Positions 38,930-61,219 are shown, counted from the first letter of the stretch. The stretch is 64,000 nucleotides of DNA from an uncultured Alphaproteobacteria bacterium (GCA_902595855.1 CACJRY010000004.1:1500-65499); one strand, 5' to 3'. Notes: a model not told the origin generated them from the sequence alone. Numbers and translations: made by a program.

Positions 38930-38948
38930 AAATATTATTATAATATTG

Positions 38949-38966: not shown

Positions 38967-38983
38967 GAAATTTATACTATCTT

Positions 38984-44078: not shown

Positions 44079-45191
44079 ATGCCTAAATACGATTTATCAA
44101 AACGAATTGTAAATGGTGAGCTAACTAGAAGACAAATGCTCAAAGGTCTTGGTGCTGCAGGTGTTTTATCAACTACAGTACCTTTATTACCAAAAACAGC
44201 ATTTGCTAAACAGCAAGCTCAACTATTTACTTGGGGTGGATATGATGATGAGGGTCTTTATGCTGGATACATTGAGAAACATGGCGGAGATCCTGAATAT
44301 TCAATATTTGGTGATGCAGAAGAAGGACTTCAAAAACTAAGATCTGGTTATGTTGTCGATGTTGCTCATCCTTGCCATTCTGACCCACCAAGATGGAATA
44401 GAGCTGGAGTAATTCAACCTCTTGATACTAGCAGACTAAGCAATTGGAATGATTTATTTCCAGAACTAATCAATATGAGCTCAATTAATTTTGATGGACA
44501 TTATTGGATGGCTCCTGTTGATTGGGGTGATACTTCAATAGTATACAATCCTGATAAAGTTGATTGGGTAAAACCTGGTGAGGAAAGTCTTAGCCTTCTC
44601 TGGGATGAGAGAATGAAAGGCAAGTTCGCTATCATGGACTCTGCAGCTGACTCTTGGTATGTTTATGCGATTGCTCTTGGCTTAGATGTCAAGAAAATGG
44701 AAAACATTTCTAAAGCTGATGTTGATATGGTTTATGAAAAAGCTGCTGGTTGGAGAGATAACGTAAAAATGTTTACAACTGACACAGCAACAATGGAACA
44801 GGCTCTTATGGATGAAGAAGTTTGGGCAGCTTTATGCTGGAATGAATCTTCATGGAATTCAGGATATCCAATGATGAGTCCAAAAGAGGGCAACCTTACT
44901 TGGTCTTGTGGATTAGTAATTCATAAGGATGCACCAAATTTAGATCTGGCATATGATCTTATTGACTCTGCTATTAGCGCTGAAACATCTGCGTACATGC
45001 TGAGTGAATGGGGCTATGGTCATTCAAATAAAAAAGGATTTGAGACAATCAGTAAAGCTGATTTAGCTGAAAGAGGTGTTGCTCAAGATCCAATTTCTCA
45101 TTTGCAAAATGGCCACTTCAATAACAGTCCTTCAGATGAAGTTAATGACTACATCGAACAAAAATGGGCTGAATATACAATTGGAGGCTAA
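44079..45191 (+). CDS. ABC transporter periplasmic substrate-binding protein (PotD/PotF polyamine family) with twin-arginine signal
   Basis: 370 aa. Tat-type signal LTRRQMLKGLGAAGVLSTTVPLLPKTAFA; family-1 SBP fold. GGAAGGA Shine-Dalgarno; own terminator. Confidence 0.85.
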   Translation: MPKYDLSKRIVNGELTRRQMLKGLGAAGVLSTTVPLLPKTAFAKQQAQLFTWGGYDDEGLYAGYIEKHGGDPEYSIFGDAEEGLQKLRSGYVVDVAHPCHSDPPRWNRAGVIQPLDTSRLSNWNDLFPELINMSSINFDGHYWMAPVDWGDTSIVYNPDKVDWVKPGEESLSLLWDERMKGKFAIMDSAADSWYVYAIALGLDVKKMENISKADVDMVYEKAAGWRDNVKMFTTDTATMEQALMDEEVWAALCWNESSWNSGYPMMSPKEGNLTWSCGLVIHKDAPNLDLAYDLIDSAISAETSAYMLSEWGYGHSNKKGFETISKADLAERGVAQDPISHLQNGHFNNSPSDEVNDYIEQKWAEYTIGG

Positions 45192-45200
45192 TAAATATTT

Positions 45201-45227
45201 AACCCGCTCTTTCGAGCGGGTTTTTAA
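45201..45227 (+). terminator. rho-independent terminator of the binding-protein gene
   Basis: AACCCGCTC tttc GAGCGGGTT + TTT. Perfect 9-bp stem, 4-nt loop, T-run on the + strand. It abuts the stop codon of the convergent ATPase gene. Confidence 0.7.
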
Positions 45228-46306
45228 TCTTTTATTATTTTTAGATTTTGTGAATTAAAGTTTACGAAACAATTATCACTTTCACTAAAAGTTTCTTTAG
45301 ATTCATTTGTTGATACCATCAAAATTTTCTCAGAATTATCAAGCTGTATATAAAAGTAAGTACTCTCTCCATAAAATGAAATATTTTTAACCTTACCATT
45401 AAAATTGCAATCATGATTAGGGTCACTAACTTTAGAGATATTGATTTCCTCAGGTCTGATTGCTATATTAAATCGATCACCCTCAATAATTTTTTGATGA
45501 TTTTTTAATGTCATTAATCCAAAGCCATCTACTGAAATAGAAATAGACTCGCTTGAAACATTCTTAAGATCAGCATCTAAAATATTAATATTTCCGATAA
45601 ACTGAGAGACAAATTTATTTTTAGGGTTGTGATAGATTTCTCTCGGTGGTGAAACTTGAAGAATATTTCCTTCATCCATTACAGCAATTCTGTCAGACAT
45701 TGTCATTGCCTCTTCTTGATCATGAGTAACAAAAATAAAAGTAATACCAAGACTCTTTTGCAAATTTCTTAATTCAATTTGCATTTCTTCTCTTAATTTT
45801 TTATCAAGAGCACCAAGAGGTTCATCAAGAAGTAGTACTTTTGGTTGTTTAACTAAAGCCCTTGCAAGAGCAATTCTTTGTCTTTGACCTCCAGATAATT
45901 GATTTGAGTATCTATTTTCATAACCTTCTAACTGAACCATCTTAAGAGCATTTTCAACTCTTTCTCCCATTTCAGCTTTGCTTAAATTTTCTTTTCTTAA
46001 ACCAAATTCAATATTTCTTTGAACATTAATGTGGGGGAAAATAGCATAGTTTTGAAATACCATATTTGAAGGTCGAAGGTTGGGTGGAAGAGATGTAACA
46101 TTAGCATCATCAAAAAATACTTCACCCTCTGATGGATATTCAAATCCAGCTAATATTCTCAGTAAAGTAGTTTTTCCACATCCAGATGGTCCAAGTAGCG
46201 AGAAAAATTCACCCTCTTCTACTTCAAGATTAATGTTTTTTAAAACTTCAACATCTCCAAAACTTTTGGATAAATTTTTAATTTTGATATAATTTTTAGT
46301 ACTCAT
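45224..46306 (-). CDS. ABC transporter ATP-binding protein (PotA/PotG-like)
   Basis: 360 aa. Walker A GPSGCGKTT, signature LSGGQRQR, Walker B LLLDEP, C-terminal TOBE-like domain. Confidence 0.9.
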   Translation of the reverse strand: MSTKNYIKIKNLSKSFGDVEVLKNINLEVEEGEFFSLLGPSGCGKTTLLRILAGFEYPSEGEVFFDDANVTSLPPNLRPSNMVFQNYAIFPHINVQRNIEFGLRKENLSKAEMGERVENALKMVQLEGYENRYSNQLSGGQRQRIALARALVKQPKVLLLDEPLGALDKKLREEMQIELRNLQKSLGITFIFVTHDQEEAMTMSDRIAVMDEGNILQVSPPREIYHNPKNKFVSQFIGNINILDADLKNVSSESISISVDGFGLMTLKNHQKIIEGDRFNIAIRPEEINISKVSDPNHDCNFNGKVKNISFYGESTYFYIQLDNSEKILMVSTNESKETFSESDNCFVNFNSQNLKIIKD

Positions 46307-46310
46307 AATT

Positions 46311-47117
46311 TTAAATACCTATACTAAAATCTTTTTTCTTGCCTTGTCCAAGATTTCTTAACCAATATGCCGTCATAACAATTAGAGAAGTGACTATAAT
46401 AATAATAGCACCTAATGCCAATATATGAGGGAATTTTTTTGGAAACCTTAATTGACTCCACATATAAATCGGAAGTGTTTGATCACTGGAGCTTAAAAAG
46501 AATGCTAATATAAATTCATCGAAGGATATAACAAATGCTAAAAGCAATGATGCAATTATCCCTGGAAGTAAAAGGGGGAAGGTGACTCTCCAGAAAGTCC
46601 AAAAAGAATTTTCACCTAAATCCATCGAGGCTTCTTCTAAACTTTTATCAAAACCTTCCATTCTAGAAATTAAAATTAGCATACAAAATGGTGTGCAAAA
46701 AAGAATATGAGAAATAGTAACCGGTATTAAACCTAATTTTAGTCCCATACTAGTCCAGATAACTATTAGAGCCACTGCAATTATAATTTCAGGAATTATA
46801 AATGGCAAAAGTATTGCTCCATATGATAACCCATGAAATTTAACTTTGTATCTTGTAAAAGCTTTAGCAGCAAATAAAGCTATGAATGTACTTACTACTG
46901 AAGCAATGATACCCACTTTAATACTGTTAAATAGTGCTTGATGCAGTCTACTTTTATTCCACATTTGAATATACCAGTCGAAAGTAAAGCCTTTTAAAGG
47001 GAACACCATATGAAAAGAGTCATTGAATGAAAAAATTGGTAGCAAAAGAACAGGAATATACAAAAAGGCAAAATAAAAAATACAATAGATAAAAAGTGTG
47101 TTGTTCTTATTATACAT
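46311..47117 (-). CDS. ABC transporter permease (PotC/PotI-like)
   Basis: 268 aa, 6 TM. EAA-loop EEASMDLGENSFWTFWRVTFPLLLPG. Confidence 0.85.
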   Translation of the reverse strand: MYNKNNTLFIYCIFYFAFLYIPVLLLPIFSFNDSFHMVFPLKGFTFDWYIQMWNKSRLHQALFNSIKVGIIASVVSTFIALFAAKAFTRYKVKFHGLSYGAILLPFIIPEIIIAVALIVIWTSMGLKLGLIPVTISHILFCTPFCMLILISRMEGFDKSLEEASMDLGENSFWTFWRVTFPLLLPGIIASLLLAFVISFDEFILAFFLSSSDQTLPIYMWSQLRFPKKFPHILALGAIIIIVTSLIVMTAYWLRNLGQGKKKDFSIGI

Positions 47118-48001
47118 TATGACATCCTCATTGAAACTTTTTTAGTGATATATGTAACTAAAGCAGCAATTAAGCAAACTGTTGTGAGCATTAATACAGC
47201 AGAGGCTGCACCTAAAGGAAAATTATTTGCCCTACCAAACAAACTTTGAATCATATTTGATAACATTCGACCATCAGTCCCTCCAACTAACTGTGGGGTA
47301 ACATAATCACCTACTGTTGGGATAAAAATAATTAATATTGCCCCAATAACGCCTGGTAATGACAAAGGAAAGGTTACCCTCCAAAATGTTTCAAATTTAG
47401 TATTACCAAGATCATAAGATGCTTCCAAAAGAGATTTATCAATTTTATCAAGCGATACATACAAAGGCAAAATAGCAAATGCCGCCCATGCATGAGACAA
47501 AGTGATTATTACAGCTGCCTGATTGTATAATAAAAATCCAAGTGGCTCGTCAATCATTCCAGTTCCCATTAAAGCAGAATTTATTACACCTTTATTTCCT
47601 AAAATTACTCTCCATGAAAAAACTCTGAGTAGATAGCTAGTCCAAAAAGGAAGTGTCATTAAGACAATCCATAGCATTTTATTTTTTTTGACATAAAAAG
47701 CTATGTAGTAAGCCAATGGATAAGTGGTTAATAAAGTCAACAAGGTAACAAAAAATGATATTTTTACTGAGCGAAACAAAAGCATTGAAAAGATAGGTTT
47801 TGAAAAAAAATCCTCATATCTACCTGTTGTAAAAGTTCTATCAATTTCAATCATTGATATTTGAGTATTGAAACTTGTAAATATCATTACTATCATTGGG
47901 GCAGCCATAGCAAAAATAACTAAGATTAATGCAGGACTTAAAAGAGTATATGCTTTGGCCTGATCACTTCTAAAATATATATTTTGTATAGTTGAGCTCA
48001 T
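47117..48001 (-). CDS. ABC transporter permease (PotB/PotH-like)
   Basis: 294 aa, 6 TM. EAA-loop LEASYDLGNTKFETFWRVTFPLSLPG. 1-nt overlap with the next permease. Confidence 0.85.
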   Translation of the reverse strand: MSSTIQNIYFRSDQAKAYTLLSPALILVIFAMAAPMIVMIFTSFNTQISMIEIDRTFTTGRYEDFFSKPIFSMLLFRSVKISFFVTLLTLLTTYPLAYYIAFYVKKNKMLWIVLMTLPFWTSYLLRVFSWRVILGNKGVINSALMGTGMIDEPLGFLLYNQAAVIITLSHAWAAFAILPLYVSLDKIDKSLLEASYDLGNTKFETFWRVTFPLSLPGVIGAILIIFIPTVGDYVTPQLVGGTDGRMLSNMIQSLFGRANNFPLGAASAVLMLTTVCLIAALVTYITKKVSMRMS

Positions 48002-48002: not shown

Positions 48003-49178
48003 TCAAATTAAATTTTCTAAACCTCTTTTATAAAGTGAATTTGCAATAATGATACGTTGAATTTCACTTGTTCCTTCCCAGATACGATCTGCTCTCAACT
48101 CTCTAAAAAATCTTTCAGCCACATTTTCTCTCATATAGCCTCTTCCACCAAATATTTGTACTGCCCTATCGGCTACACGGTTAGCCATTTCTGATGCATA
48201 TAATTTTATCATTGAGCATTTAGCATGCAGGATTTTGACATCAGTTTGATTATCATGCTCTTTGCAAATTTCAAAAAGCAAGACTCTTGTTGCAGCAAGT
48301 TCAGTTACACTATCAGCTAACATTGACTGAATTAATTGAAAATCTTTTATTTTAGTTCCATTAGCTTCTCTATCTTTGGCAAATTTAGTTGCTTCAAATA
48401 TTAATCTTTCTGCTGCCCCACAACACCTAGCAGCAATTCCTAATCTTTCATGACGAAACCAAGAATGCGTATATGCCATTCCATCATCTTCTTTTCCAAT
48501 GATACAATTCGAGGGTATCTTAACGTCATTAAAATTGTAAATACAATGATGATGAGAAAAAGTATGCGTAAATTCTGGAGTATCGATTAATTCAATACCT
48601 TCTAAATGTTTATCAACAATAAATAAGGCATGTTGATCTTTGTTTTTTCCATTTTTTAATTTTGCTTGCAAAAAAAAGAAATCAGCTTTGTTGGCGCTAG
48701 TGACATACCACTTTTCACCATTAATTATATAATTACCATCAATCAACTCAGCTGTAGTTTTGATTGAACCATTTACATCTGAGCCTGATCCTTTTTCAGT
48801 AATAGCATAACATTCTTTTTTTTCACCTTTGAGTAAAGGGTACAAATAATTTTCTTTTTGAAAAGGTGTAAAATTTTCTTCCATCCAATCTTGTGCCTCA
48901 GAGAAACACCAACATAATGCATTAGTTACTCTTCCTAACTGTTCCCAAATAATCATTTGCTCAAACATTGAAAGCTCCAAACCGCCTTCTTTTTTTGATA
49001 TTCCCATACCAGGTAAGCCGAGCTTAATTGCTATATCAGAATGCTTTTTTTCAATGTCAGAGGGCAAATTACCAGAATTTTTTTCTGCATGTACTTCCCA
49101 AGGAATTAATTCATTATCAACAAATTTTCTTATTTTGATTTGCCATTCTAAAGCTGATTTTGTCATTCCACTATACAT
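48003..49178 (-). CDS. acyl-CoA dehydrogenase family protein
   Basis: 391 aa. ACAD blocks CYAITEKGSGSDV, QIFGGRGYM, RADRIWEGTSEIQR. Tightly packed between the TetR gene and the ABC permease genes. Confidence 0.85.
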   Translation of the reverse strand: MYSGMTKSALEWQIKIRKFVDNELIPWEVHAEKNSGNLPSDIEKKHSDIAIKLGLPGMGISKKEGGLELSMFEQMIIWEQLGRVTNALCWCFSEAQDWMEENFTPFQKENYLYPLLKGEKKECYAITEKGSGSDVNGSIKTTAELIDGNYIINGEKWYVTSANKADFFFLQAKLKNGKNKDQHALFIVDKHLEGIELIDTPEFTHTFSHHHCIYNFNDVKIPSNCIIGKEDDGMAYTHSWFRHERLGIAARCCGAAERLIFEATKFAKDREANGTKIKDFQLIQSMLADSVTELAATRVLLFEICKEHDNQTDVKILHAKCSMIKLYASEMANRVADRAVQIFGGRGYMRENVAERFFRELRADRIWEGTSEIQRIIIANSLYKRGLENLI

Positions 49179-49801
49179 TAAGAATATCCTTTGAATTGTT
49201 TCGGAAAATGAGTTTTAAGATAATCAATACATATTTTCTTTGACTCAGATCTAGAAAATTTTGATGGTTCATCTAATTGATTAAGCCATAGACCCATAAT
49301 TAATGATTGAAATGCTATTGATAAACTTTTTTTGGATAAATTATTTTTTTCAATCTTAATTAATTCAGAAAATATATTTTCTGTTACATTCTGATAATAT
49401 AAATCTCTTTCTCTACAGATTTGCCTATAAGCAGGCTTGAATTTAATTTCACTAAAGAAAGTAAACCATACAGAAATTTTTTCTGGAGTACATATTTTGG
49501 AACTAAAATCATTTTCTATCATATTGATTATTTTTAACTTAGGATCATCTCCAGCTTTTTTTAAATATTTATCAAATGATGTCAGATATTCGTTAGAAAT
49601 AAATTTCAAAGTTTCTATCAACAGTAATTCTTTACTTTTGAAATGAAAGTTAACTATCCCTTGTGATAAACCTGCGCCTTGAGACACATCATTCATAGTA
49701 AGGTCATTTATGCCTTTTTTTGATAAATTTTTTATCGTTGAAGATATAAGTCTTAAATTACTATTTTTTTTATTCTCTGATCTTTGATTTTTACTAGCCA
49801 T
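49178..49801 (-). CDS. TetR/AcrR family transcriptional regulator
   Basis: 207 aa. N-terminal HTH (INDLTMNDVSQGAGLSQGIVNFHFKSKELL). First gene of the TetR-ACAD-permease-permease-ATPase operon. Confidence 0.85.
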   Translation of the reverse strand: MASKNQRSENKKNSNLRLISSTIKNLSKKGINDLTMNDVSQGAGLSQGIVNFHFKSKELLLIETLKFISNEYLTSFDKYLKKAGDDPKLKIINMIENDFSSKICTPEKISVWFTFFSEIKFKPAYRQICRERDLYYQNVTENIFSELIKIEKNNLSKKSLSIAFQSLIMGLWLNQLDEPSKFSRSESKKICIDYLKTHFPKQFKGYS

Positions 49802-49896: not shown

Positions 49897-51525
49897 ATGC
49901 CAAAAACTAAGTATGATGTAGCAATTGTTGGTGGTGGTCATAATGGCCTGACAACTGCATGTTATCTAGCTAAAGCTGGATTAAAAGTAGCTGTAATCGA
50001 ACGTCATAGTTATGTTGGCGGAGCTGCTGTAAGTAGAGAATTGCATCCAGGCTGGACTTATTCTAATTGTTCGTATGTATGTAGCTTACTTAGACCAGAG
50101 ATATTTAGAGATTTAGAGCTTTCCAAGTACGGTTTGCAAATAATTCCTTATGAAGGAAGCGCTTCAATGCTTGATGATGGTAGATTTTATGCTCATTATA
50201 GTGACCATGATCTAAATTACAGATCAATAGCTCAATTTTCAAAAAAAGATGCAGAAGCTTATGAGAGATTTGGGAAAGATGTCATGAGGCAGTGCAAAAT
50301 AATAAAACCTCTTTTAAAAATGACACCTCCTGATCCAACTTCATTTAGGCCAAAAGATATTATGGGGCTTTTGGAGTTTGCAAAATATTTTGCAGCAAAA
50401 GATGAATTAGGTGGATTAGGAGAAAAAGAGATTTATGACACAATTCGTTTTTGGACAATGAGTGTTCGTGATTATTTAGAAGAATATTTTGAGTCAGATG
50501 TAGTCAAAGCACATTTAGCTGGATCAGCAATAATTGGCACCGCTCTTGGTCCCTATTCACCAGGTTCAGCTTATGTATTATTGCATCATTATATGGGTGA
50601 GGTTGATGGAACTGTTGGCGCATGGGGATACTCACGTGGAGGAATGGGATCAATTACAAAAGCAATGGCTGCTTCTCTAAAAGCAAATGGAGGTGATATC
50701 ATCGCAGGATCTCCCGTAACTAAAATATTAATTAAAAATAATCGTAGTCATGGAGTTGTTCTAGAAAATGGAGATGAAATATTTGCAGATAAGTTAGTTT
50801 CAAATCTTGATGTGAAAAGAACTTTTTTAAAAGTTGTTGAGAAAAAAGAATTACCTGATGATTTTTATAATGCAGTAAAAAATTTTAAAATAAGAGGTTC
50901 ATCAGGAAAATTAAATATTGCACTTGATGATTTACCAATATGGAAAAGTATTCCTGAAGGAGATCCTGCTGGAACAGGAGACTTACACATTACCCAAAGT
51001 ATAGAAGAAATGGAAGGCGCATATGATGATTGGAAAGATGGACGATGGTCAAAATTCCCATACGTAGATATGTGTATACCGAGTATCAATGATCCAACAA
51101 TGGCACCACAAGGTAAGCATTATATGTCTGTTTTTGTTCAATATGTACCTTATAATTTAACAGATGGAGGATGGACTGAAGAAAAGAGATTAGAGTTTGG
51201 GAAACATGTGATGAGTAGAATTGGTTCATACTCTGAAAACTTTAATGATATTATAAATCATGCTGAAATAAGAACACCTAAAGAACTTGAAAAAGAAGTT
51301 GGATTAACTGAAGGAAATATTTTCCAAGGTGAGCTCACAATGGATCAATTAATGTTTAATAGACCAATACCTGGTTATGCCCAATATAAAACACCTATTA
51401 AAAATCTTTATATGTGTGGATCTAGTACTCACCCAGGTGGAGGTGTTATGGGAGCACCAGGAGCAAATGCTGCTAGAGAAATTTTAATCGATTTAAAAAA
51501 ACAATTTAATTCACATTACATATGA
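49897..51525 (+). CDS. NAD(P)/FAD-dependent oxidoreductase, CrtI/amine-oxidase fold (COG1233-like), function unknown
   Basis: 542 aa. Dinucleotide fold DVAIVGGGHNGLTTACYLAKAGLKVAVIERHSYVGG; C-terminal LYMCGSSTHPGGGVMGAPGANAA, typical of the phytoene-desaturase-like family. Confidence 0.75.
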   Translation: MPKTKYDVAIVGGGHNGLTTACYLAKAGLKVAVIERHSYVGGAAVSRELHPGWTYSNCSYVCSLLRPEIFRDLELSKYGLQIIPYEGSASMLDDGRFYAHYSDHDLNYRSIAQFSKKDAEAYERFGKDVMRQCKIIKPLLKMTPPDPTSFRPKDIMGLLEFAKYFAAKDELGGLGEKEIYDTIRFWTMSVRDYLEEYFESDVVKAHLAGSAIIGTALGPYSPGSAYVLLHHYMGEVDGTVGAWGYSRGGMGSITKAMAASLKANGGDIIAGSPVTKILIKNNRSHGVVLENGDEIFADKLVSNLDVKRTFLKVVEKKELPDDFYNAVKNFKIRGSSGKLNIALDDLPIWKSIPEGDPAGTGDLHITQSIEEMEGAYDDWKDGRWSKFPYVDMCIPSINDPTMAPQGKHYMSVFVQYVPYNLTDGGWTEEKRLEFGKHVMSRIGSYSENFNDIINHAEIRTPKELEKEVGLTEGNIFQGELTMDQLMFNRPIPGYAQYKTPIKNLYMCGSSTHPGGGVMGAPGANAAREILIDLKKQFNSHYI

Positions 51526-53000
51526 GAAAATTTGATATTATAATTATAGGGGGAGGACACAATGGTTTAGTTGCAGCAAGTGTTCTTTCAAAAAAAGGAA
51601 ATAAAGTTCTGGTTATAGAGAAAAATGAACAATTAGGTGGTCTCTCTAACTACGTTGACTCATTAAGTTATATTTCTGAAGAAGTTTTAAAAGAATTAAA
51701 TATTAAAATTGAAAAAGATATAAATGAAAATTATGTTTCTGCTTTATCTGACGATTTAAATCATACGGTACTTAAAATTAATGGTAACAAAAATATTGAA
51801 ATTTTACAAACTAATGCGAGTGAGTCTGATCAAGTAAATTTTATTAAATTAATCAATAAATACGATTTATTTGCTAGAACATTAAGATCATTCATGTTTA
51901 AAAAACCTCCAAGAGTTAAATCAGGTTCTAGATCTGATATATGGCAATTAGTTTCAATGGGTCTTAAAGTCAGACTTCTTGGCAAAAAAAACATGCGAGA
52001 ATTATTACGAGTCATCGGTTTAAATATTGCTGATGATTTAGAAGATAATATAACCGATAATATTCTAAAGGGTCTGTTATCAAATGAGGCTGTTATTGGT
52101 ACAAATCTTGGTGCAAGATCTCCAGGATCAATTTTAAATTTATTGTATAACCAGGCGACAAATAATTCAATTTTTAGAATTAATAAATACAATACAAATT
52201 CTTTTTTAAATTCCATTAGAGAAATCTGTAAAAAAAATAATGTTGAAATTGAAACTAATAAAAAAGTAGAGAAAATTAATATTTCTAATCAAAATGTTAA
52301 TTCAGTTTTACTTGATACTGGAGAAGAAATTCAGACTTCTTCAATAATCTCGAATGTAGACCCAAAAACCACATATTTAAAATTGGTCGGAGCTGCTAAT
52401 CTTGATACTGACTTCATCAGAAGAACCAAAAACTATCGCACCAAAGGAACAGTGGCCAAAATTCATATCGACTTTGAGAATGAGATAAAAATTAATAATT
52501 TAGACACAAAATATTTATCTGGTAAATTTGTTTATGCTCCTGATATAAAATATATAGAACATGCTTTTAATGATAATAAGTATAATAAATTATCATCTAA
52601 TCCCTGTTTAGAATTTTATATCAATAAAAATAAATTGTCTGCAAATATTTATTTTATACCTTATTTAATTAATTCCGCACATGATAAGAAAAAAATATTG
52701 TCAAATGTTAAACTGATTTTAGAAAAATTTGTCACAGAAAATCAAATTCTTTCATCTACAATTGAAACACCTAATGATATTGAGGATAAATATAATATTA
52801 GTGGTGGCCATTGGAGTCATGGTGATATGGAAATTGATCAACTTTTAATGATGCGTCCATTTTATGGATCATCCCAATATTCAACTCCAATAAATGGCTT
52901 GTATCTCTGTAGCGCGGGTACACATCCTGGTGGTGGCGTAACAGGCATTAATGGAATTAATGCTGCAAAACAATTACTAAAGGACAATCGTAATGGATAA
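51522..53000 (+). CDS. second CrtI/amine-oxidase-fold NAD(P)/FAD-dependent oxidoreductase (divergent paralog)
   Basis: 492 aa. DIIIIGGGHNGLVAASVLSKKGNKVLVIEKNEQLGG and LYLCSAGTHPGGGVTGINGINAA. ATGA overlap with the upstream paralog. Confidence 0.7.
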   Translation: MRKFDIIIIGGGHNGLVAASVLSKKGNKVLVIEKNEQLGGLSNYVDSLSYISEEVLKELNIKIEKDINENYVSALSDDLNHTVLKINGNKNIEILQTNASESDQVNFIKLINKYDLFARTLRSFMFKKPPRVKSGSRSDIWQLVSMGLKVRLLGKKNMRELLRVIGLNIADDLEDNITDNILKGLLSNEAVIGTNLGARSPGSILNLLYNQATNNSIFRINKYNTNSFLNSIREICKKNNVEIETNKKVEKINISNQNVNSVLLDTGEEIQTSSIISNVDPKTTYLKLVGAANLDTDFIRRTKNYRTKGTVAKIHIDFENEIKINNLDTKYLSGKFVYAPDIKYIEHAFNDNKYNKLSSNPCLEFYINKNKLSANIYFIPYLINSAHDKKKILSNVKLILEKFVTENQILSSTIETPNDIEDKYNISGGHWSHGDMEIDQLLMMRPFYGSSQYSTPINGLYLCSAGTHPGGGVTGINGINAAKQLLKDNRNG

Positions 53001-54180
53001 TTCATTTTCATTTACTAAACCTCTTTTAGAAACACCTTTTCATGAAAGGACTTATGAAGCTTGCTATAACAATGATTGGTATCGTTGGGCTGGATACAAA
53101 ATTGCAAGAGAGTATTCTAATACAGAATTAGAATATACCGCTATGAGAAATACAGCAGGTGTCTTAGATATAACACCAATGCATAAGTATGATATTAAAG
53201 GAGCAGATGCGATAAGATTTGTAGATAAATTAGTCACAAGAAATGTAACTGAAATAAAGTCTGGCCAAGTTATGTATATTATTTGGTGTAATGAAGATGG
53301 AAATGTGATCGATGATGGTACTGTCTTCTGTTTTGACTCAAATCACTTAAGAATATTTTGTGCAGAAAGAAATTTGAATTGGTTTTCTGATACAGCAATA
53401 GGTTTTGATGTTGAAGTAGAAGATGTAAGTGACACTATTGCTGCTTTAGCATTTCAAGGCCCTCTTTCTTGTAAAATTTTAAATTTATTAAATGTCAAAA
53501 ATATAGAAAACCTGAAACCATTTTACTTTGATGATTTTGATCTTAATGGTTGCAAAGTTACCATATCAAGAACAGGTTTTTCTGGAGATTTAGGCTATGA
53601 AATTTGGTGTAAAAATGAAGATGCTATTAGTGTATGGGACTCACTATTCAAGTTTAATAGAGACTACAAAGTTTTACCTGCGGGTATGAATGCATTAGAA
53701 ATGGTTAGAGTTGAAGCAGGATTTATTCAACCTAATGCAGACTTTATGTCAGCTGAACAAGCATTACGTCCAAATAGAATGAGGAATCCATTTGAATTAG
53801 GTATGGGCTGGTTAGTAGATTTAAACAAAAACTATTTTACAGGAAAAAAAAATCTAGTTGACCTTAAGAAAAAAACTTTAACTAAAAAATTAGTTGGTCT
53901 TGATATTCAAGGTGATAAACCTGCTATTGGTTCAGTTTTATATGATAAAAATAAAAAAGAAATTGGTATTGTGACTGCAGGTATGTGGTCGCCTAGCTTA
54001 AAATCCAATATAGCTTTTGGTTATGTCGATAAGGATCATATGAAAATTGGATCTAAAGTTTTTGCTGAAATATATCATCCTGAGGAATTAGAATATAAAA
54101 AAATATGGGCTGAATGTTCAGTTGTAAAAAAACAGTTTTTTAATCCACCAAGACGGCATAAAGTACCTGCTGAGATATAA
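52993..54180 (+). CDS. aminomethyltransferase (GcvT) family folate-binding protein, stand-alone
   Basis: 395 aa. TPFHERT…, ELEYTAMRNTAGVLDITPMHKYDIKGADA, ISRTGFSGDLGYEIW, RVEAGF, typical of the GcvT/DmdA/sarcosine-oxidase-alpha folate domains. 8-nt overlap with the upstream gene. Confidence 0.8.
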   Translation: MDNSFSFTKPLLETPFHERTYEACYNNDWYRWAGYKIAREYSNTELEYTAMRNTAGVLDITPMHKYDIKGADAIRFVDKLVTRNVTEIKSGQVMYIIWCNEDGNVIDDGTVFCFDSNHLRIFCAERNLNWFSDTAIGFDVEVEDVSDTIAALAFQGPLSCKILNLLNVKNIENLKPFYFDDFDLNGCKVTISRTGFSGDLGYEIWCKNEDAISVWDSLFKFNRDYKVLPAGMNALEMVRVEAGFIQPNADFMSAEQALRPNRMRNPFELGMGWLVDLNKNYFTGKKNLVDLKKKTLTKKLVGLDIQGDKPAIGSVLYDKNKKEIGIVTAGMWSPSLKSNIAFGYVDKDHMKIGSKVFAEIYHPEELEYKKIWAECSVVKKQFFNPPRRHKVPAEI

Positions 54181-54184: not shown

Positions 54185-55336
54185 ATGGAATTCAATTTTA
54201 CTGAAGAGCAAAATCTTTTAATAAATACAACTAAAGCTTTTGTAAAAGCAGAGTTACTTCAACATGAAGAACTTTTAGAAAAAACAAATAATTTGCCAAA
54301 AGAATTATATGATGAAATTAAGAAAAAAAGTATTGAAGCAGGATTATATGCTTGCAATATGCCAGTTGAGCATGGTGGTGGTGGTTTAAATGCTTTTGAT
54401 TTAACCTTAGTTGAAAAACATTTAGGTTTTGCATCTCTTGCCTTAGCTGAAATTGCTTGGCGTCCACAAAATATCCTAATGGCCTGTGAGGGTGAATTAA
54501 TTGATGAATACTTAAAACCTGCCATTACTGGTGAGAGAAAAGATTGTATTGCGATGACCGAGCCTGAGGCTGGTTCAGATCTTAGAGGAATGAAAACAAA
54601 TGCAAAAAAAGATGGTGATGATTGGGTAATAAATGGAACTAAACATTTTATATCAAATGCTCATATTTCTGACTTTGTTGTTTTATTTGCCTCAACTGGA
54701 ACTGACGAACAAGGAAGAAATTTATTGTCATGTTTTCTGGTTGATCTTCATCAAAAAGGTGTTGAAGTAACTAAGGGCTACGACTGTGTTTCTCATAGAG
54801 GATATGTAAATAATGTTATCAATTTTAATGACTGCAGAATACCTGGAAAAAATATTTTAGGTGAAAAGGATAAAGGTTTTGAATTAATGAATGTGTGGTT
54901 AGAAGCAACACGATTAACAGTAGCGGCAACTTCTGTATCAAGGGCAGAAAGAGCATTTGATATTGCACTTGACTGGTCAGCTAATAGAAAACAATTTGGA
55001 AAAGTAATTGGAAAGTTTCAAGGTGTTTCTTTTAAATTAGCAGATATGGCCACAAATATTAAAGCTGCAAATCTAATGCTACTTGAGTCAGCATGGAAGA
55101 TTGATGAAAAAACTCTATCATCTCAAGATGCTGCGATGACAAAATTATTTTGTACTGAAATGCTTGGAAAAGTATCAGATGAAGCAATTCAAATTTGTGG
55201 AGGCATGGGTTTAATGTCTGACATTCCACTAGAAAGAATCTGGCGTGATGCAAGAATAGAGCGGATTTGGGAAGGCACAAGTGAAATCCAAAGGCATATT
55301 ATCTCAAGATCTTTGTTAAGACCTCTTGGGGCTTAA
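54185..55336 (+). CDS. acyl-CoA dehydrogenase
   Basis: 383 aa. CIAMTEPEAGSDL, QICGGMGLM, RDARIERIWEGTSEIQR. Confidence 0.9.
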   Translation: MEFNFTEEQNLLINTTKAFVKAELLQHEELLEKTNNLPKELYDEIKKKSIEAGLYACNMPVEHGGGGLNAFDLTLVEKHLGFASLALAEIAWRPQNILMACEGELIDEYLKPAITGERKDCIAMTEPEAGSDLRGMKTNAKKDGDDWVINGTKHFISNAHISDFVVLFASTGTDEQGRNLLSCFLVDLHQKGVEVTKGYDCVSHRGYVNNVINFNDCRIPGKNILGEKDKGFELMNVWLEATRLTVAATSVSRAERAFDIALDWSANRKQFGKVIGKFQGVSFKLADMATNIKAANLMLLESAWKIDEKTLSSQDAAMTKLFCTEMLGKVSDEAIQICGGMGLMSDIPLERIWRDARIERIWEGTSEIQRHIISRSLLRPLGA

Positions 55337-57383
55337 TTTTGTGAACTTGAATAAATTATTTAGACCAAAAAAACTTGCAATAATTGGAGGATATTGGGCT
55401 GACTTTGTTTATGATGAAAATATAAAGATTGGCTTTAAAGGAGAAATTTGGCACATTAATCCAAAGAGAAAAAGTTCAAAAAAAAAGAAATATTACAAAA
55501 GTATAGCTGACTTACCGTCAATCCCTGATTGCGTTTATATTGCAGTTTCAAACAATTTAACAATTCAATTAATGAAGCAAATTTCTGAAATTGGTGCTGG
55601 AGGTGCTGTATGCTTAGCTTCAAGATTTTCAGAATTAAATACTGCAGAGGGAAAAGAAAAAACTAAAAAATTAATAAGTAATTCAGGCAAAACTCCTTTT
55701 TTAGGCCCTAATTGTTATGGATTTATAAATTATTTCGATAGAGTTTCAGTTTGGTCAGATCAAGTTGCGGGTAGTCAAACAAACAAAGGTGTGGCTATTA
55801 TTTGTCAAAGTGGAACTATTGGCAATACAATTAGTTTCAATCACAGATCTCTTCCAATAGGATACATCATATCATTGGGCAATCAGGCTAAAATAAGCAT
55901 TGAGGATACAATTGAATATTCTCTGAGAGATAAAAGAGTTACGGCAATCGGTATATACGCTGAAGGTTTCACAAGCATAAATAAACTAATTAAAGTATTA
56001 AAAATCTCCAAAGAAAAAAAAATCCCAATAGCTATTGTCAAAGTTGGCAGGTCAAAAGTTGCATCTGAAACAATTTTAACTCATACAGGCTCATTAAGTG
56101 GCAAAGAAAATATTTATGATGCTTTGTTTAAAAGAATGGGAGTAGCTAGATGCGAAACACTATCAGAACTTACAGAGTTGTTAAAATATTTTCATACACA
56201 TGGAGTTATTTCGAATGATCTAATATCAATTATGGGACCCTCAGGTGGAGATATGGCAATGTTAGGAGATGCCGCTGAAACATTAGATTTAAAATTTGGA
56301 AAAATTAAAACAGAAATTAAAAATGATCTAAAAAAAGTAAATCATCCTGGTGTAATAGTATCTAATCCTTTTGATATGCAAACATATAATTGGAATGATC
56401 CTGACAATATAGAAAAGACATTTAAAATTTTTTTTAAAAATAATTTTAGTTCAATAAGCTTAATGTTAGATTTTCCAAATATGGAAAATTGCGATACTGA
56501 TGAATGGGATGCTATAGTTGATAAATTTATAAAAGTTGCAAAAAAATATAAAAACGGAAGCCTAATTTCATCTTTATCAGACACTATGCCAAAGCATATT
56601 CGTGATAAATGTATAAAGAATGGAGTTTCGCCTCTTCAAGGAATGAGAGAAGCTCTATTCACAATTAAAAAAGCAATAGAAATCGGAAGTATTTGGAAGA
56701 AGGAGTCACCTGTAAATAGTTATAAAGTAGAGAATAATAGTAGTAAAAATATAAAAACTTACTCTGAATTTGAGTCTAAAAAACTGTTAAATAAAATTGG
56801 AATTAAAACCCCTAAAGGATTAATTTCAAATAAAAATAAATTAAAAAAAGATAGTGCTAAAATTGGTTTTCCATTAGTTGCTAAAATTCACTCAAACAAA
56901 ATATTTCATAAATCCGAGCTCAATGGTGTCATCACCAATATTAAAAATGTGAATGAATTAATTACCAAAACAAAAACATTTAAAGATCAAATTTTATTAG
57001 AAAAAATGGTCGACAATACAATAATAGAAATTTTAATAGGTATCAAAATTGATTCTGAATTTGGTCCTGTAATTGTTATAGGTTCTGGAGGAATTTACAC
57101 AGAGCTGATAAGAGAAACCAAAACTCTTCTATTGCCCTTAGCAAAAAAAGATATCAAAAATGAATTAAAAAAAATGAAAATAGGTAAAATTTTATTTGGC
57201 TATAGAAATGCTAACTCAGCAGATGTAAAGGTTTTAATTAATACTGTATTAAAATTATCTAAATTTGCTGAAAAAAATATAAATAAATTGCATGAAATTG
57301 AAATTAATCCACTAATTGTTTGCAAAAAAAATAAAGGTGTATTTGCTGTCGACGCACTAATACATTATTTTGAAGAATTATGA
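55326..57383 (+). CDS. ADP-forming acyl-CoA synthetase (fused CoA-binding + succinyl-CoA-synthetase-like + ATP-grasp domains)
   Basis: 685 aa. N-terminal LFRPKKLAIIGG CoA-binding domain, central ligase-CoA domain, C-terminal ATP-grasp (GFPLVAKIHS…). Start uncertain: TTG 55326 in the track, GTG 55341 also possible. Confidence 0.8.
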   Translation: MGLNFVNLNKLFRPKKLAIIGGYWADFVYDENIKIGFKGEIWHINPKRKSSKKKKYYKSIADLPSIPDCVYIAVSNNLTIQLMKQISEIGAGGAVCLASRFSELNTAEGKEKTKKLISNSGKTPFLGPNCYGFINYFDRVSVWSDQVAGSQTNKGVAIICQSGTIGNTISFNHRSLPIGYIISLGNQAKISIEDTIEYSLRDKRVTAIGIYAEGFTSINKLIKVLKISKEKKIPIAIVKVGRSKVASETILTHTGSLSGKENIYDALFKRMGVARCETLSELTELLKYFHTHGVISNDLISIMGPSGGDMAMLGDAAETLDLKFGKIKTEIKNDLKKVNHPGVIVSNPFDMQTYNWNDPDNIEKTFKIFFKNNFSSISLMLDFPNMENCDTDEWDAIVDKFIKVAKKYKNGSLISSLSDTMPKHIRDKCIKNGVSPLQGMREALFTIKKAIEIGSIWKKESPVNSYKVENNSSKNIKTYSEFESKKLLNKIGIKTPKGLISNKNKLKKDSAKIGFPLVAKIHSNKIFHKSELNGVITNIKNVNELITKTKTFKDQILLEKMVDNTIIEILIGIKIDSEFGPVIVIGSGGIYTELIRETKTLLLPLAKKDIKNELKKMKIGKILFGYRNANSADVKVLINTVLKLSKFAEKNINKLHEIEINPLIVCKKNKGVFAVDALIHYFEEL

Positions 57384-58156
57384 ACGAACCTGTTAAAACA
57401 ATAATAAAAGACTCAATCCTCGAAGTTACAATAGATAGACCTAAAGCAAACGCTATTGATGCAAAAACTAGTATAATTTTAGGAGAAATTTTTTCTAACT
57501 TTAGAGATGATCCAAATTTAAAAGTAGCAATTATAACTGGCGCTGGAGAGAAATTTTTTTCAGCTGGATGGGATTTAAAAGCAGTTAATGAGGGAGAAGA
57601 GGCTGATGCTTACTATGGAGAAGGTGGATTTGGGGGATTACAAGAGCTTCCAAATTTAAATAAGCCAGTTATTGCAGCAGTAAACGGTATAGCATGTGGT
57701 GGTGGATTTGAAATAATGATATCTGCAGATATTATTGTAGCTTCAGAAGATTCTACTTTTGCATTACCTGAAATTAATGTGGGTGTAATAGCTGATGCAG
57801 CAACTATAAAACTAAGAAGAAGAATTCCATATCATGTAGCAGTTGAATTTTTGATGACTGGAAGATGGATGGATACTAGGGAAGCAAAACATTGGGGTCT
57901 AATTAATGAGGTTGTTGAAAAAAAAGATGTATTAAATAGAGCATGGGATATAGCAACAAAAATCTCAAAAGGACCTAACTTAATTTATGCTTCAATTAAA
58001 GAGGTTCTAAGAGAAACCGAAAATGAAAAAGAGCTACCTTCATTTAAAATATTACGATCTCTAGAAACTGTTAAAAAGGTATATGGTAGTCATGATTTAA
58101 AAGAAGGGGCTTCATCTTTTGTTAAAAAAACTGACCCTAAATGGCAAGATAAATAA
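57380..58156 (+). CDS. caiD: crotonase-family hydratase, carnitinyl-CoA dehydratase (CaiD)-like
   Basis: 258 aa. Long identical runs to E. coli CaiD as I remember it: DRPKANAIDAKTS, FRDDPxLxVAIITGAGEKFFSAGWDLKA, KPVIAAVNG. ATGA overlap with the synthetase gene. Confidence 0.8.
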   Translation: MNEPVKTIIKDSILEVTIDRPKANAIDAKTSIILGEIFSNFRDDPNLKVAIITGAGEKFFSAGWDLKAVNEGEEADAYYGEGGFGGLQELPNLNKPVIAAVNGIACGGGFEIMISADIIVASEDSTFALPEINVGVIADAATIKLRRRIPYHVAVEFLMTGRWMDTREAKHWGLINEVVEKKDVLNRAWDIATKISKGPNLIYASIKEVLRETENEKELPSFKILRSLETVKKVYGSHDLKEGASSFVKKTDPKWQDK

Positions 58157-58212: not shown

Positions 58213-59595
58213 ATGAAGAACGATTATATTTCAGAAATTTACGAAAAAGATAAACTGGTTTTGCATCCTTATGAAAATTTCAATGATAGAGGAACATATA
58301 ACCGAAAATTAATAACTAAATCCGATAATATCTACTTGTATGATGAGAATGGTAATAAGTTCATAGACGGCCCAGGGGGAATGTGGTGCAATAATATTGG
58401 TCATGGAAATAGAGAAATTGGTGAAGCGGTAAAAAATCAAATTGAAAAAATGGATTATTGCAGTCCATTTTCAGAATCTACAGAAATTTCAGCTGAATTA
58501 GCATCTGTATTGGCAGATCTTTCTCCAGGAGATTTAAATACTATTTTTTTTACTTCAGATGGGTCTACTGCAAATGAGACTGCATTAAGATTTGTTATGT
58601 TCTATAATAATATTTTAGGCAAACCCAATAAGAAACATATTATCACAAGAGATAAAGCCTATCATGGAAGTACTTACTTAACTGGATCCATAACTGGGAA
58701 AGATAGAGAAAAAAATAATTTTGATTTTGAAAAGAACTTTATTCATCATTTAAGTTCCCCCCTACCCTACAGAAGACCAAAGGATCAAACTCCAGAACAA
58801 TTTTGTGATTTTCTTGTTAAAGAATTTGAAAATAAAATTGAAGAACTTGGTTCAGAAAATGTCGCTGCTTTTATAGCTGAACCTATCTTAGCTTCAGGTG
58901 GATGTATAGTACCTCCAGAAGGATATTATAAAAAAATATATGATGTTTGTAAAAGAAATGAAATAATATTTATAGCTGATGAGGTTGTGACTGGGTTTGG
59001 AAGACTTGGTCATTTTTTCTCATCAGAAAAAGTTTTTGGAGTAGTGCCAGATATCATTACTTGTGCCAAAGGTATAACTTCTGGTTATTTGCCTTTAGGA
59101 GCCGTTTTGTTTTCAGACAAATTAATAAGTGATCTAAAGCATGACTCATCATTATTTTTTCATGGATACACTTACTCTGGTCATCCTGCTTGTTGTGCAG
59201 CTGCTCTTAAAAATATCGAAATATTAAAAAGAGATAAAATTTTAGAACATGTTCGTGAAATTGAACCTTACTTTTTTGATAAACTAAACACACTTTATGA
59301 ACTTCCAATTGTTGGCGATATTAGAGGAAAAGGTTTGATGGCTGGAATTGAATGTGTAATTAACAAAGATAGCAAAGAAGCGTTGGTTTTGGATAAAGCA
59401 ATTGGCTCAAGAATTGATGAGGAGTCTATAAAATTAGGTCTTATAATCAGACCTCTCTACCATATTTGTGTTCTCTCGCCTGCTTTGATTATAACTAAAA
59501 GTCAAATTGATGATCTTACTGAAAAATTATATCTAGCTATTTCAAACACAATTGATCAATTACAAAAAGAGGGACTCTGGTCTAATCAAAAATGA
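58213..59595 (+). CDS. class III (omega-amine:pyruvate/2-oxoglutarate) PLP aminotransferase
   Basis: 460 aa. FFTSDGSTANE, IADEVVTGFGRLG, PLP-lysine block ITCAKGITSGYLPLGA. Confidence 0.9.
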   Translation: MKNDYISEIYEKDKLVLHPYENFNDRGTYNRKLITKSDNIYLYDENGNKFIDGPGGMWCNNIGHGNREIGEAVKNQIEKMDYCSPFSESTEISAELASVLADLSPGDLNTIFFTSDGSTANETALRFVMFYNNILGKPNKKHIITRDKAYHGSTYLTGSITGKDREKNNFDFEKNFIHHLSSPLPYRRPKDQTPEQFCDFLVKEFENKIEELGSENVAAFIAEPILASGGCIVPPEGYYKKIYDVCKRNEIIFIADEVVTGFGRLGHFFSSEKVFGVVPDIITCAKGITSGYLPLGAVLFSDKLISDLKHDSSLFFHGYTYSGHPACCAAALKNIEILKRDKILEHVREIEPYFFDKLNTLYELPIVGDIRGKGLMAGIECVINKDSKEALVLDKAIGSRIDEESIKLGLIIRPLYHICVLSPALIITKSQIDDLTEKLYLAISNTIDQLQKEGLWSNQK

Positions 59596-60770: not shown

Positions 60771-61213
60771 GTACTAAAATTATAAAAGCAACTAAGAAAA
60801 ATATAAATGAAGCAGGTTATTTGTTTGATCTTTATCGTCAATTTTACAAATATAAATCTAATATAAAAGCATCTACAAATTATATTAAAGATAGAATTAA
60901 TAAAAAAGACTCTTTTATTTTTTTATGTTTATATCAAAATCAACCTGCTGGTTTCCTGCAGTTATATGAAACATTCGACTCTCTAAATATTAATAAAAAA
61001 TTAATACTTTATGATTTGTATGTTGAGAAAAAATTCAGAAGAAATGGAATTGGAAGAAAACTAATGAATACAGCAAAAAAACTAGCAAAATCCAAAAAAA
61101 TAAAAATTGTTGAGTTATCTACTGCTACAAACAACAAAAAAGCTCAGGCACTTTACGAATCTCTTGATTACAAAAGAGACAAAGAATATTATACTTATTT
61201 TCTTGAATTATAA
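60767..61213 (+). CDS. GNAT family N-acetyltransferase
   Basis: 148 aa. Acetyl-CoA motif A: VEKKFRRNGIGRKLMNTAKKLAK. ATGA overlap with the MFS gene. Confidence 0.8.
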   Translation: MSTKIIKATKKNINEAGYLFDLYRQFYKYKSNIKASTNYIKDRINKKDSFIFLCLYQNQPAGFLQLYETFDSLNINKKLILYDLYVEKKFRRNGIGRKLMNTAKKLAKSKKIKIVELSTATNNKKAQALYESLDYKRDKEYYTYFLEL

Positions 61214-61219
61214 TTTGAT

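Follow-up and report, generated by a model that had tools for sequence, protein, structure and literature searches.

A candidate folate-coupled N-demethylase that pairs two PYROXD2/CrtI-type flavoproteins with a free-standing GcvT-like protein

Several described enzymes couple the flavin-dependent oxidation of an N-methyl group to a tetrahydrofolate (THF) site of the GcvT fold and yield 5,10-methylene-THF, among them dimethylglycine oxidase (DMGO) and dehydrogenase (DMGDH), sarcosine dehydrogenase (SARDH) and 4-methylaminobutyrate oxidase (MABO). In the DMGO/DMGDH-type enzymes a flavin domain of the D-amino acid oxidase (DAO) family (PF01266) is fused to the folate domain. Heterotetrameric sarcosine oxidase (SoxABDG) and N-methylglutamate dehydrogenase (MgdABCD) are multi-subunit enzymes, with a catalytic flavoprotein and a second Rossmann-type subunit that bears the GcvT-fold folate site. 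For methylamines, a GcvT-fold module that traps formaldehyde lies beside the demethylase, as DmmD does in DmmDABC, or is attached to it, as is the C-terminal domain of the trimethylamine N-oxide demethylase Tdm. The Tdm domain has been found experimentally to convert channelled formaldehyde to methylene-THF (PMC13619132), and the same role was proposed for the free-standing GcvT-like DmmD in the case of dimethylamine monooxygenase (PMC5520151). Here we analyse a stretch of DNA of 64,000 nucleotides (the window) from an uncultured Alphaproteobacteria bacterium (GCA_902595855.1, CACJRY010000004.1:1500-65499), in which three adjacent genes encode two paralogous flavoproteins, FlvA and FlvB, and a GcvT-like protein predicted to bind THF (the trio; Table 1). 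We lean, with modest confidence, towards the reading that these three proteins form an oxidative N-demethylase that is coupled to folate, acts on secondary and/or tertiary N-methylamines and feeds a transaminase.

The trio would share its overall chemistry with the DMGO/DMGDH-type enzymes, but it consists of two CrtI/PYROXD2-type (PF01593) flavoproteins and a separate folate polypeptide. It differs from SoxABDG and MgdABCD in having no delta or gamma subunits and in the fold of its flavoproteins. DmmABC, a monooxygenase with haem, flavin and iron-sulfur (FeS), and Tdm, whose DUF1989 core contains Zn, are both unrelated to FlvA and FlvB and come without a pair of flavoprotein paralogues. The carotenoid enzymes CrtI, CrtD and CrtO do have the fold of FlvA and its CrtI-type C-terminal flavin adenine dinucleotide (FAD) signature, but the identity is low and the trio has no carotenoid context. 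Another FAD enzyme of the PF01593 fold, LSD1/KDM1A, demethylates mono- and dimethyl-lysine through an iminium. It reportedly binds tetrahydrofolate, and folate is said to have been proposed as the formaldehyde acceptor. LSD1 would resemble the trio flavoproteins at the level of the superfamily only; it acts on proteins and is not known to have a GcvT-fold partner. Mammalian PYROXD2, unlike the bacterial FlvA, is eukaryotic and mitochondrial and has no known activity and no known FlvB- or GcvT-like partner. Finally, DmdABCD comprises the same four families as the GcvT-like gene together with the acyl-CoA dehydrogenase (ACAD), CoA ligase and crotonase genes that adjoin it in the window's clade only; the window ligase, however, is ADP-forming and not AMP-forming, and the CoA genes are not conserved partners of the trio.

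When compared with the known demethylase systems (DMGO, DMGDH, SARDH, MABO, Sox/N-methylglutamate dehydrogenase, Tdm and DmmDABC), the trio belongs to none of them. Flavin demethylation with capture at a GcvT fold is known already, as are a separate GcvT-type helper (DmmD) and, reportedly, a folate-binding demethylase of the amine-oxidase fold (LSD1). The novelty lies in the PYROXD2/CrtI-type flavoprotein family, in the obligate pair of paralogues and in the arrangement over three polypeptides. An earlier note on this DNA had proposed amine oxidation and folate capture split over separate polypeptides. That proposal gains from the PYROXD2 link and the folate residues described below, but given the precedents of DmmD and LSD1 its logic is not wholly new. 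Each of the refuting conditions in the note that we could examine spoke for its proposal. The note also knew of no characterised system with this composition, and we found none in papers or under database names. Literature searches for the gene combination or for the candidate substrates yielded no characterisation, and the database names for the flavoproteins are only "phytoene dehydrogenase-like protein" and "NAD(P)/FAD-dependent oxidoreductase". Two candidate papers, a preprint on R. pomeroyi transcript markers and a paper on glycine betaine and MtgBCD, were set aside and concern other genes.

The window has a GC content of about 29%, and over this locus it shares 99% identity with single-cell genomes of the SAR11 type, AG-447-J18 among them. 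At least 583 FlvA relatives came up when one genome for each GTDB species was scanned, and the best 80 loci were used for comparison. These span two SAR11 clades, Rhodospirillales, Kiloniellales, Hyphomicrobiales/Rhizobiaceae, Paracoccaceae, Woeseia, Steroidobacteraceae, Arenicellales and others. The FlvB gene lies directly after that of FlvA in 70 of the 70 informative loci, and the GcvT-like gene directly after that of FlvB in all 65, with the counts restricted to contigs that extend far enough (n=70 for FlvB, n=65 for the GcvT-like gene). The linkage that the earlier note had seen at this one locus is thus absolute in the loci examined. The estimated gaps at the junctions nearly always fall between -14 and +11 nt, in Alphaproteobacteria and Gammaproteobacteria, and this gene order with near-zero spacing in distant lineages is more than chance. 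In the window, direct reading places an ATGA overlap between FlvA and FlvB at 51522-51525. FlvB and the GcvT-like gene overlap by 8 nt at 52993-53000, with the ATG of the latter at 52993 and the FlvB stop TAA at 52998-53000, and the stop of the GcvT-like gene (54178-54180) is followed by 4 nt and then by the ATG of the next gene (54185-55336). This reading reproduces the coordinates and the translational coupling that the earlier note gave for the trio, but not its seven-gene operon, since the tightly packed run on the same strand has ten genes and ends at 61789 with major facilitator superfamily (MFS), GNAT and HD genes. Contigs from a marine metatranscriptome (run X2, records 11, 12 and 14) cross the FlvA/FlvB, FlvB/GcvT and GcvT/ACAD junctions, with DNA carry-over being possible.

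Both flavoproteins match PF01593 from end to end (cut-off 19.8 bits), FlvA with 59.8 bits and FlvB with 43.2 bits, and both have the GGGHNGL motif towards the N-terminus and THPGGGV towards the C-terminus, as had been noticed before. Matches to narrower families are a different matter. The best NCBIfam match of FlvA, to CrtO (NF045689), reaches 285 bits against a cut-off of 1000, crtI_fam (TIGR02734) gives 103 against 238, and another carotenoid family score, 97 against 640, is likewise far below. An AlphaFold2 model of FlvA (mean confidence, pLDDT, 75) has CrtD (4rep, TM-score 0.76/0.83) as its closest fold and then CrtI, at 16-18% identity in the fold alignments, followed by the flavin amine oxidases NicA2, monoamine oxidase, putrescine oxidase and cyclohexylamine oxidase. 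Because CrtD and CrtI are closest and the amine oxidases come next, the fold does not tell whether the chemistry is of the C-C or the C-N kind. FlvA is well conserved, with 60-74% identity across the non-SAR11 loci and Pelagibacteraceae and up to 99% in the window's own clade.

The relationship of FlvA to PYROXD2 is a closer one. A search seeded with the human PYROXD2 sequence returned genuine PYROXD2 entries at 98% identity, and only mammalian sequences were among the top 120 matches listed. FlvA aligns over its full length with mouse PYROXD2 (P0427; residues 3-534 to 32-579) at 38% identity, 384 bits and an E-value of 1e-131, whereas FlvB reaches 24% identity and only 142 bits. The segments LLHHxMG...GAWxYxxGGMG and GNIFxG..DQLxFxRP are common to FlvA and PYROXD2 and missing from FlvB, and the motif HPGGGVMGA is common to FlvA and PYROXD2 as well. 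By this full-length homology, clearly stronger than that of FlvB, FlvA qualifies as a PYROXD2-family protein and would be the bacterial counterpart of the human orphan enzyme. The human PYROXD2 locus is the strongest metabolite locus for N6-methyl-lysine and N6,N6-dimethyl-lysine, dimethylamine and trimethylamine. Urinary trimethylamine and plasma dimethylamine map there, and the haplotype with lower PYROXD2 expression goes with higher levels of both, trimethylamine being strongly negatively correlated with expression (PMC3169529). For plasma N6-methyllysine and N6,N6-dimethyllysine, a missense variant there accounts for some 50% of the variance, and the locus also affects N-methylpipecolate and trimethyllysine (PMC8109053). 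The genetics provide independent, correlative support for a family that consumes N-methylated aliphatic amines. That the whole PYROXD2 family, the human enzyme included, would consist of N-methylamine dehydrogenases or demethylases that hand the one-carbon (C1) unit to tetrahydrofolate is a tentative extension, which we consider possible.

Two gammaproteobacterial metagenome-assembled genomes, L065 (774-2480, minus strand) and L076, have the same layout: a few kb upstream of the trio, but on the other strand, each encodes a second FlvA paralogue (57-58% identity). In L076 it adjoins a flavoprotein of the old yellow enzyme (OYE) type with flavin mononucleotide and iron-sulfur (OYE/FMN-FeS), while the adjacent open reading frame (ORF) in L065 carries no annotation; L065 also has a further class III transaminase close by, together with a sodium:solute symporter. 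Two contigs binned as Bacteroidetes and Salibacteraceae (L037 and L050) carry FlvA proteins that are 73% and 65% identical to the SAR11 and proteobacterial forms, and because both contigs are short, mis-binning is more likely than genuine transfer.

FlvB is 27% identical to FlvA and evolves much faster, with identities between lineages outside the window's clade of about 27-43%; the GcvT-like protein is intermediate, at 41-57%. The scores of FlvB against the carotenoid models are again well short of the cut-offs (crtI_fam 67/238; CrtO 135/1000), and it has a conserved motif of its own, GGHWHHGE. FlvB may serve as a subunit for structure or specificity, or else act as a second catalyst. Among relatives with FlvA above 90% identity the FlvB identity falls to about 60%, and FlvB of the window's clade lacks a stretch near residues 41-52 when compared with L041, L062, L069 and L074.

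The third protein contains both GcvT-fold domains (PF01571, 193 bits; PF08669, 50.5 bits), so that the family assignments suggested by the earlier note hold for all three members. Its best NCBIfam match is the C-terminal half of Tdm (249 bits, cut-off 1100). Only positions 387-758 of the 763 in that model are matched, and the 395-aa protein lacks the N-terminal core and with it the Tdm architecture. The scores fall short for the GcvT equivalogs (TIGR00528, 197.6/235.85; PRK00389, 230.1/300), for DmdA (NF009133, 154.3 against 410) and for soxA of heterotetrameric sarcosine oxidase (144/1164); within the trio, soxB reaches 32 against 529. It also aligns with the folate domain of DMGDH at 98-101 bits and with that of DMGO at 70 bits. 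Residue conservation was scored over 67 orthologues, and D108, E203 and R239 are invariant in all of them. In an alignment with Thermotoga maritima GcvT (1WOO), D108 falls on the catalytic D96, and E203 on E195, the Glu of the G[FY]E/GYE motif. The GcvT "GAR" motif has an Arg (R227 in T. maritima) that both of the aligned bona fide GcvT structures possess; in 66 of the 67 orthologues Leu stands in its place, as in Tdm, and DmdA is without this Arg as well. The counterpart of the Tdm entrance Arg (R480) is R83. Neither gcvH nor gcvP turned up around the trio in the window or in the neighbour families that recur over the 80 loci, and the cluster ORF listing holds no genes for small (delta or gamma) subunits. 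By these scores and alignments, the GcvT-like protein keeps its folate and catalytic residues, on which the role proposed in the earlier note depends, and GcvT, DmdA and Tdm are not its orthologues.

To describe the surroundings of the trio, all ORFs of the 80 loci were clustered and the representatives scanned against Pfam and NCBIfam. Next to the trio, 51 loci have an orthologue (51-58% identity) of the window's class III transaminase, an enzyme that in structure comes closest to 3I5T and to putrescine or polyamine:pyruvate transaminases. The TetR regulator is beside it in 59 of the 80, although the window's protein scores 99 bits against BetI (TIGR03384), below the cut-off of 201. PotABC-type permease and ATPase genes accompany the trio in 46-50 loci, and a PotD/PotF-type binding protein also recurs. 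Less frequent neighbours are a second transaminase of the GntE/HemL-like type (11 loci), an ACAD0 orthologue with 53-61% identity (10 non-SAR11 loci), an OYE/FMN-FeS flavoprotein with the architecture of trimethylamine dehydrogenase (TMADH) and DgcA (8 non-SAR11 loci), an ADP-forming CoA ligase (6 loci) and a GbcA-like Rieske oxygenase (6 non-SAR11 and 19 Pelagibacteraceae loci). Also among the less frequent neighbours are PuuC-like aldehyde dehydrogenases, PuuA-like glutamine-synthetase homologues and a PuuD-like peptidase. Both SAR11 clades have GNAT and MFS genes with the trio, and the transaminase gene of Pelagibacteraceae is directly followed by those of the Rieske and DAO enzymes. Only in the window's clade (most of L001-L012) is the GcvT-like gene separated from the transaminase by the block of ACAD, ligase and crotonase genes, and because this block is confined to that clade we take it as an insertion into an older FlvA-FlvB-GcvT-transaminase unit. 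The earlier picture of the trio as the head of a CoA-dependent betaine operon is therefore right for the window's own clade and not for the other loci, where the partners are the transaminase, the TetR regulator and the ABC importer.

Table 1. Features of the window discussed in the text; positions are counted from the first nucleotide of the window.
Feature	Position	Strand	Remarks
FlvA	49897..51525	+	542 aa, PYROXD2-like FAD flavoprotein, CrtI/amine-oxidase fold; likely catalytic subunit
FlvB	51522..53000	+	492 aa, divergent FlvA paralogue; partner or second flavoprotein
GcvT-like protein	52993..54180	+	395 aa, free-standing GcvT-fold tetrahydrofolate-binding protein (predicted)
TetR regulator, BetI-like	49178..49801	-	PF00440 and PF13977 (BetI-type C-terminal domain); divergent
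Operator-like palindrome TTGAATGGTCATTCAA	49862-49877		Perfect 16 bp, divergent FlvA/TetR promoter, about 20 nt upstream of FlvA
Class III omega-amine transaminase	58213..59595	+	PF00202, 296 bits; NF005447, 658 bits (cut-off 618)
PotABCD-type ABC importer	44079..48001		Substrate-binding protein 44079-45191 (+), ATPase 45224-46306 (-), permeases 46311-48001 (-)
Acyl-CoA dehydrogenase ACAD0	48003..49178	-	Co-transcribed with TetR; frequent partner
Clade-specific insertion	54185..58156	+	Acyl-CoA dehydrogenase, ADP-forming CoA ligase, CaiD-like crotonase
Gene-run tail	59592..61789	+	MFS transporter, GNAT acetyltransferase, small HD-domain protein
OYE/FMN-FeS flavoprotein	35637-37670	-	Probable same regulon (35637..40321)
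GbcA-like Rieske oxygenase	37697-38965	-	Probable same regulon
Second operator-like palindrome TTGAATGCTTATTCAA	38950-38965		2 mismatches to FlvA operator; exactly between Rieske/OYE-type genes and DAO gene
DAO-family oxidase	38984-40321	+	Probable same regulon; polyamine island
DAO-family oxidase	32903-34219	-	Polyamine island
PuuA-like glutamine-synthetase homologues	34287-35651; 42572-43954	+; -	Polyamine island
Agmatine deiminase; N-carbamoylputrescine amidase	40453-41502; 41713-42582		Polyamine island
4HBT-type thioesterase	61790-62257	-	Module in window 61790-64000
BKACE	62301-63191	+	Module in window 61790-64000
Carnitine-dehydrogenase-like partial ORF	~63200 to window end		GTGVIGTGW NAD motif, typical of L-carnitine/3-hydroxyacyl-CoA dehydrogenases

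The substrate-binding protein (SBP) of the importer gives some indication of what is taken up. Aligned with Escherichia coli PotD, it keeps the aromatic residues W34, Y37, W229, W255 and Y293. Three of the four acidic polyamine-binding residues of PotD are gone (E36 to G, D168 to S and D257 to C); among the other acidic or polar positions S83 has become C and Y85 has become S, and only the change of E171 to D is conservative. The HMMER numbering reproduces W34/T35/E36/Y37, which validates the list of PotD ligand residues used. Since the aromatics are kept and the acidic residues are gone, the ligand would be a methylated ammonium compound, bound through cation-pi contacts, and not a classical polyamine. 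The "spermidine/putrescine" label of this protein is therefore probably a mis-annotation, and the protein may bind a methylated onium compound like SAR11_1336, the only tested PotD-like SBP of SAR11, which is annotated PotD and binds glycine betaine and dimethylsulfoniopropionate (DMSP), not polyamines (PMC11485210).

The palindromic operator described ahead of the trio in the earlier note is indeed a perfect palindrome (Table 1), and the pattern TTGAAT-N4-ATTCAA precedes FlvA in seven non-SAR11 loci as well as in the two SAR11 clades. Matches to it with at most 3 mismatches number 6 against 2.4 expected, which is marginally above chance, and only the one at 38950-38965 has the backing of its context. 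Together the FlvA operator and this site suggest a single putative BetI-like regulon over about 25 kb. The linkage of Rieske and DAO genes to the trio in Pelagibacteraceae is in this way matched by common operator-like sites in the window's clade. Promoter and terminator scans of this 29% GC sequence gave counts no higher than the shuffle expectation.

In the mechanism we propose, FlvA would use its FAD to oxidise the N-CH3 bond to an iminium, and the GcvT-like protein would take the C1 unit, either as the iminium or as freed formaldehyde, onto tetrahydrofolate to give 5,10-methylene-THF. FlvB would be an obligate partner subunit or the performer of a second demethylation, with FlvA and FlvB forming a heterodimer or carrying out one step each. 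The class III transaminase would deaminate the primary amine finally exposed, the PotD-like ABC system would import the substrate, and the BetI-like TetR protein would repress from the operator. In SAR11 the Rieske and OYE/TMADH-type enzymes might take the earlier quaternary or tertiary steps, so that an onium compound could lose all of its methyl groups; examples would be gamma-butyrobetaine, beta-alanine betaine and related omega-(methyl)amino compounds. Because the flavoprotein pair, the folate protein and the omega-transaminase are all conserved, flavin N-demethylation with THF capture and transamination is the simplest chemistry, and amine oxidation by FlvA and FlvB is supported by the fold that PF01593 proteins have in common with flavin amine oxidases. 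Candidate substrates are 4-(di)methylaminobutyrate (from gamma-butyrobetaine), derivatives of beta-alanine betaine, N-methylputrescine and compounds of the N-methyl-lysine type. The sequence favours no single one of these, and our confidence in any one substrate is far below that in the mechanism. The reaction, the formation of a complex, the electron acceptor and the substrate are all things that we infer from the gene families and their context.

There are several observations that weigh against this proposal. The best fold of FlvA is that of a carotenoid C-C desaturase, CrtD, which together with its CrtI-type C-terminal motif makes C-C desaturation chemistry possible on the evidence of the model. 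PYROXD2 is an orphan mitochondrial flavoprotein of unknown enzymatic function (PMC8777681), its human genetics are correlative, and the biochemistry suggested for the FlvA family is read from sequence. The simple scheme offers no explanation for the ACAD and ADP-forming CoA ligase genes that turn up repeatedly near the trio. In the window, the DAO-family and OYE-type enzymes could already cover the secondary and tertiary steps. FlvB of the window's clade lacks the GGMG and DPxxAPxGKH segments kept in other FlvB proteins, losses that point to a relaxed or shifted constraint. Additionally, no genuine FlvA-FlvB or FlvB-GcvT fusion was found in the 150 best FlvB-family representatives, the longest of which has at most 589 aa, or in the FlvA homologues listed. 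Two apparent FlvA-FlvB fusions were rejected. One of 1065 aa (L053, 9988-13185) is an ORF-calling artefact whose first half is out-of-frame, stop-free, high-GC sequence, and one of 904 aa (P0110) arises from a frameshift near the FlvA C-terminus that reads FlvA into FlvB.

Looking at the other ways in which these genes can be read helps to place the proposal. The window operon holds the four families of DmdA-D (GcvT-fold, CoA ligase, ACAD and crotonase), and it could be a nitrogen analogue of the DMSP (Dmd) route, with a DmdA-like GcvT protein that moves a methyl group from an onium compound directly to THF. The ligase, ACAD and crotonase would then activate, desaturate and hydrolyse 3-(alkylamino)propionyl- or butyryl-CoA, and FlvA and FlvB would do another redox job, for example C-C desaturation or oxidation of the released amine. 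This would fit the C-C desaturase that is the nearest solved fold of FlvA and the recurrence of ACAD0 and the ADP-forming ligase beside the trio in non-SAR11 loci. However, we think it unlikely, as the DmdA model gives 154 bits against its cut-off of 410 and the GcvT-like protein keeps the Asp used in methylene chemistry. Additionally, the ligase, ACAD and crotonase genes part the GcvT-like gene from the transaminase only in the window's clade, the crotonase being absent elsewhere, and the invariant association is that of GcvT with two flavoproteins and not with CoA enzymes. A carotenoid reading takes the label "phytoene dehydrogenase-like" at its word and would make the flavoproteins genuine carotenoid, retinoid or squalene desaturases or ketolases. 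It can point to the CrtI-type signature, to CrtO as the best NCBIfam match and to CrtD as the best fold. With all family scores far below their cut-offs and every trio context one of amine or osmolyte catabolism, we reject such a role and give it hardly any credence, in accordance with the earlier note, which had seen no carotenoid genes in the window. We likewise found no crtB, crtE or crtY among the larger window ORFs scanned (not every ORF) or among the recurrent neighbour families of the 80 loci.

Two further alternatives keep the amine oxidation and change the substrate. FlvA and FlvB could be polyamine or secondary-amine oxidases that cut a non-methyl C-N bond, in spermidine or norspermidine for example, with the GcvT-like protein ancillary or unrelated. 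PF01593 takes in polyamine oxidases, the transporter is of the PotD/PotF type, and PuuA-, PuuC- and PuuD-like genes, agmatine deiminase and SpuC-like transaminases are close by. SAR11, moreover, uses spermidine yet has no spdH, and its canonical catabolic genes were reported missing (PMC8437039). However, because such a cleavage frees no one-carbon unit, the absolute linkage to a GcvT fold would go unexplained. The SBP without three of the four acidic residues, the tested SAR11 PotD-like SBP with its betaine and DMSP ligands (PMC11485210) and the BetI-like regulator also speak against it, and we regard polyamine oxidation as quite improbable. The other alternative retains the proposed mechanism with free dimethylamine as the substrate, so that the trio would be the dimethylamine-to-methylamine step that SAR11 lacks. 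SAR11 is without dmmDABC (PMC5520151), glutamine-synthetase-like genes are close by, and in humans PYROXD2 expression is anticorrelated with trimethylamine while the low-expression haplotype also has higher dimethylamine (PMC3169529). Against this, the conserved omega-transaminase and ABC importer would have no role, and the glutamine-synthetase-like genes score below the type III/GmaS-type cut-off. The trio is also apparently absent from the cultured SAR11 Ia strains HTCC1062, HTCC1002 and HTCC7211, for which only four aminomethyltransferase (AMT) paralogues are described, none of them beside a phytoene-dehydrogenase-like gene (PMC3160333). We therefore judge free dimethylamine to be a very unlikely substrate. 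Since these strains apparently lack the trio, their physiology and proteomics are not usable for it.

The folate-coupled demethylase provides a concrete reaction hypothesis for a trio that occurs in at least several hundred proteobacterial species, many of them from sea or soil and abundant SAR11 lineages among them, and whose genes are transcribed at sea while being labelled only "phytoene dehydrogenase-like". If true, it would be a third structural solution for folate-linked demethylation, beside the DAO-fused enzymes and the Sox-type complexes, and a widespread ocean sink for methylated omega-amino compounds. It would also open a new route by which the methyl groups and nitrogen of methylated amines derived from osmolytes or polyamines enter one-carbon metabolism in oligotrophic oceans. 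For human PYROXD2, the bacterial operon context, with the folate protein and then the transaminase, gives a first mechanistic hypothesis, which can be tested in easily expressed bacterial proteins. The FlvA-FlvB-GcvT operon would then serve as a "Rosetta stone" for the function behind one of the strongest human metabolite quantitative trait loci. As for annotation, the trio flavoproteins should be named as non-carotenoid, and the cargo of the adjacent "polyamine" transporter is probably a methylated onium compound.

The first 30 kb of the window hold housekeeping genes and the remainder is given to amine and osmolyte catabolism. A polyamine/gamma-glutamylation island extends over 32903-43954. 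At the other end, the crotonase of the trio's gene run (288 bits against crotonobetainyl-CoA hydratase), the thioesterase, BKACE and the carnitine-dehydrogenase-like ORF may make up a route from gamma-butyrobetaine through carnitine to glycine betaine, presumably along the lines of the S. meliloti and Pseudomonas pathways. The HD-domain protein at 61220-61789, which is kept across the window's clade, has a weak and local match to phosphonate oxygenases of the PhnZ/TmpB type (37-41 bits, in the region of the HD motif).

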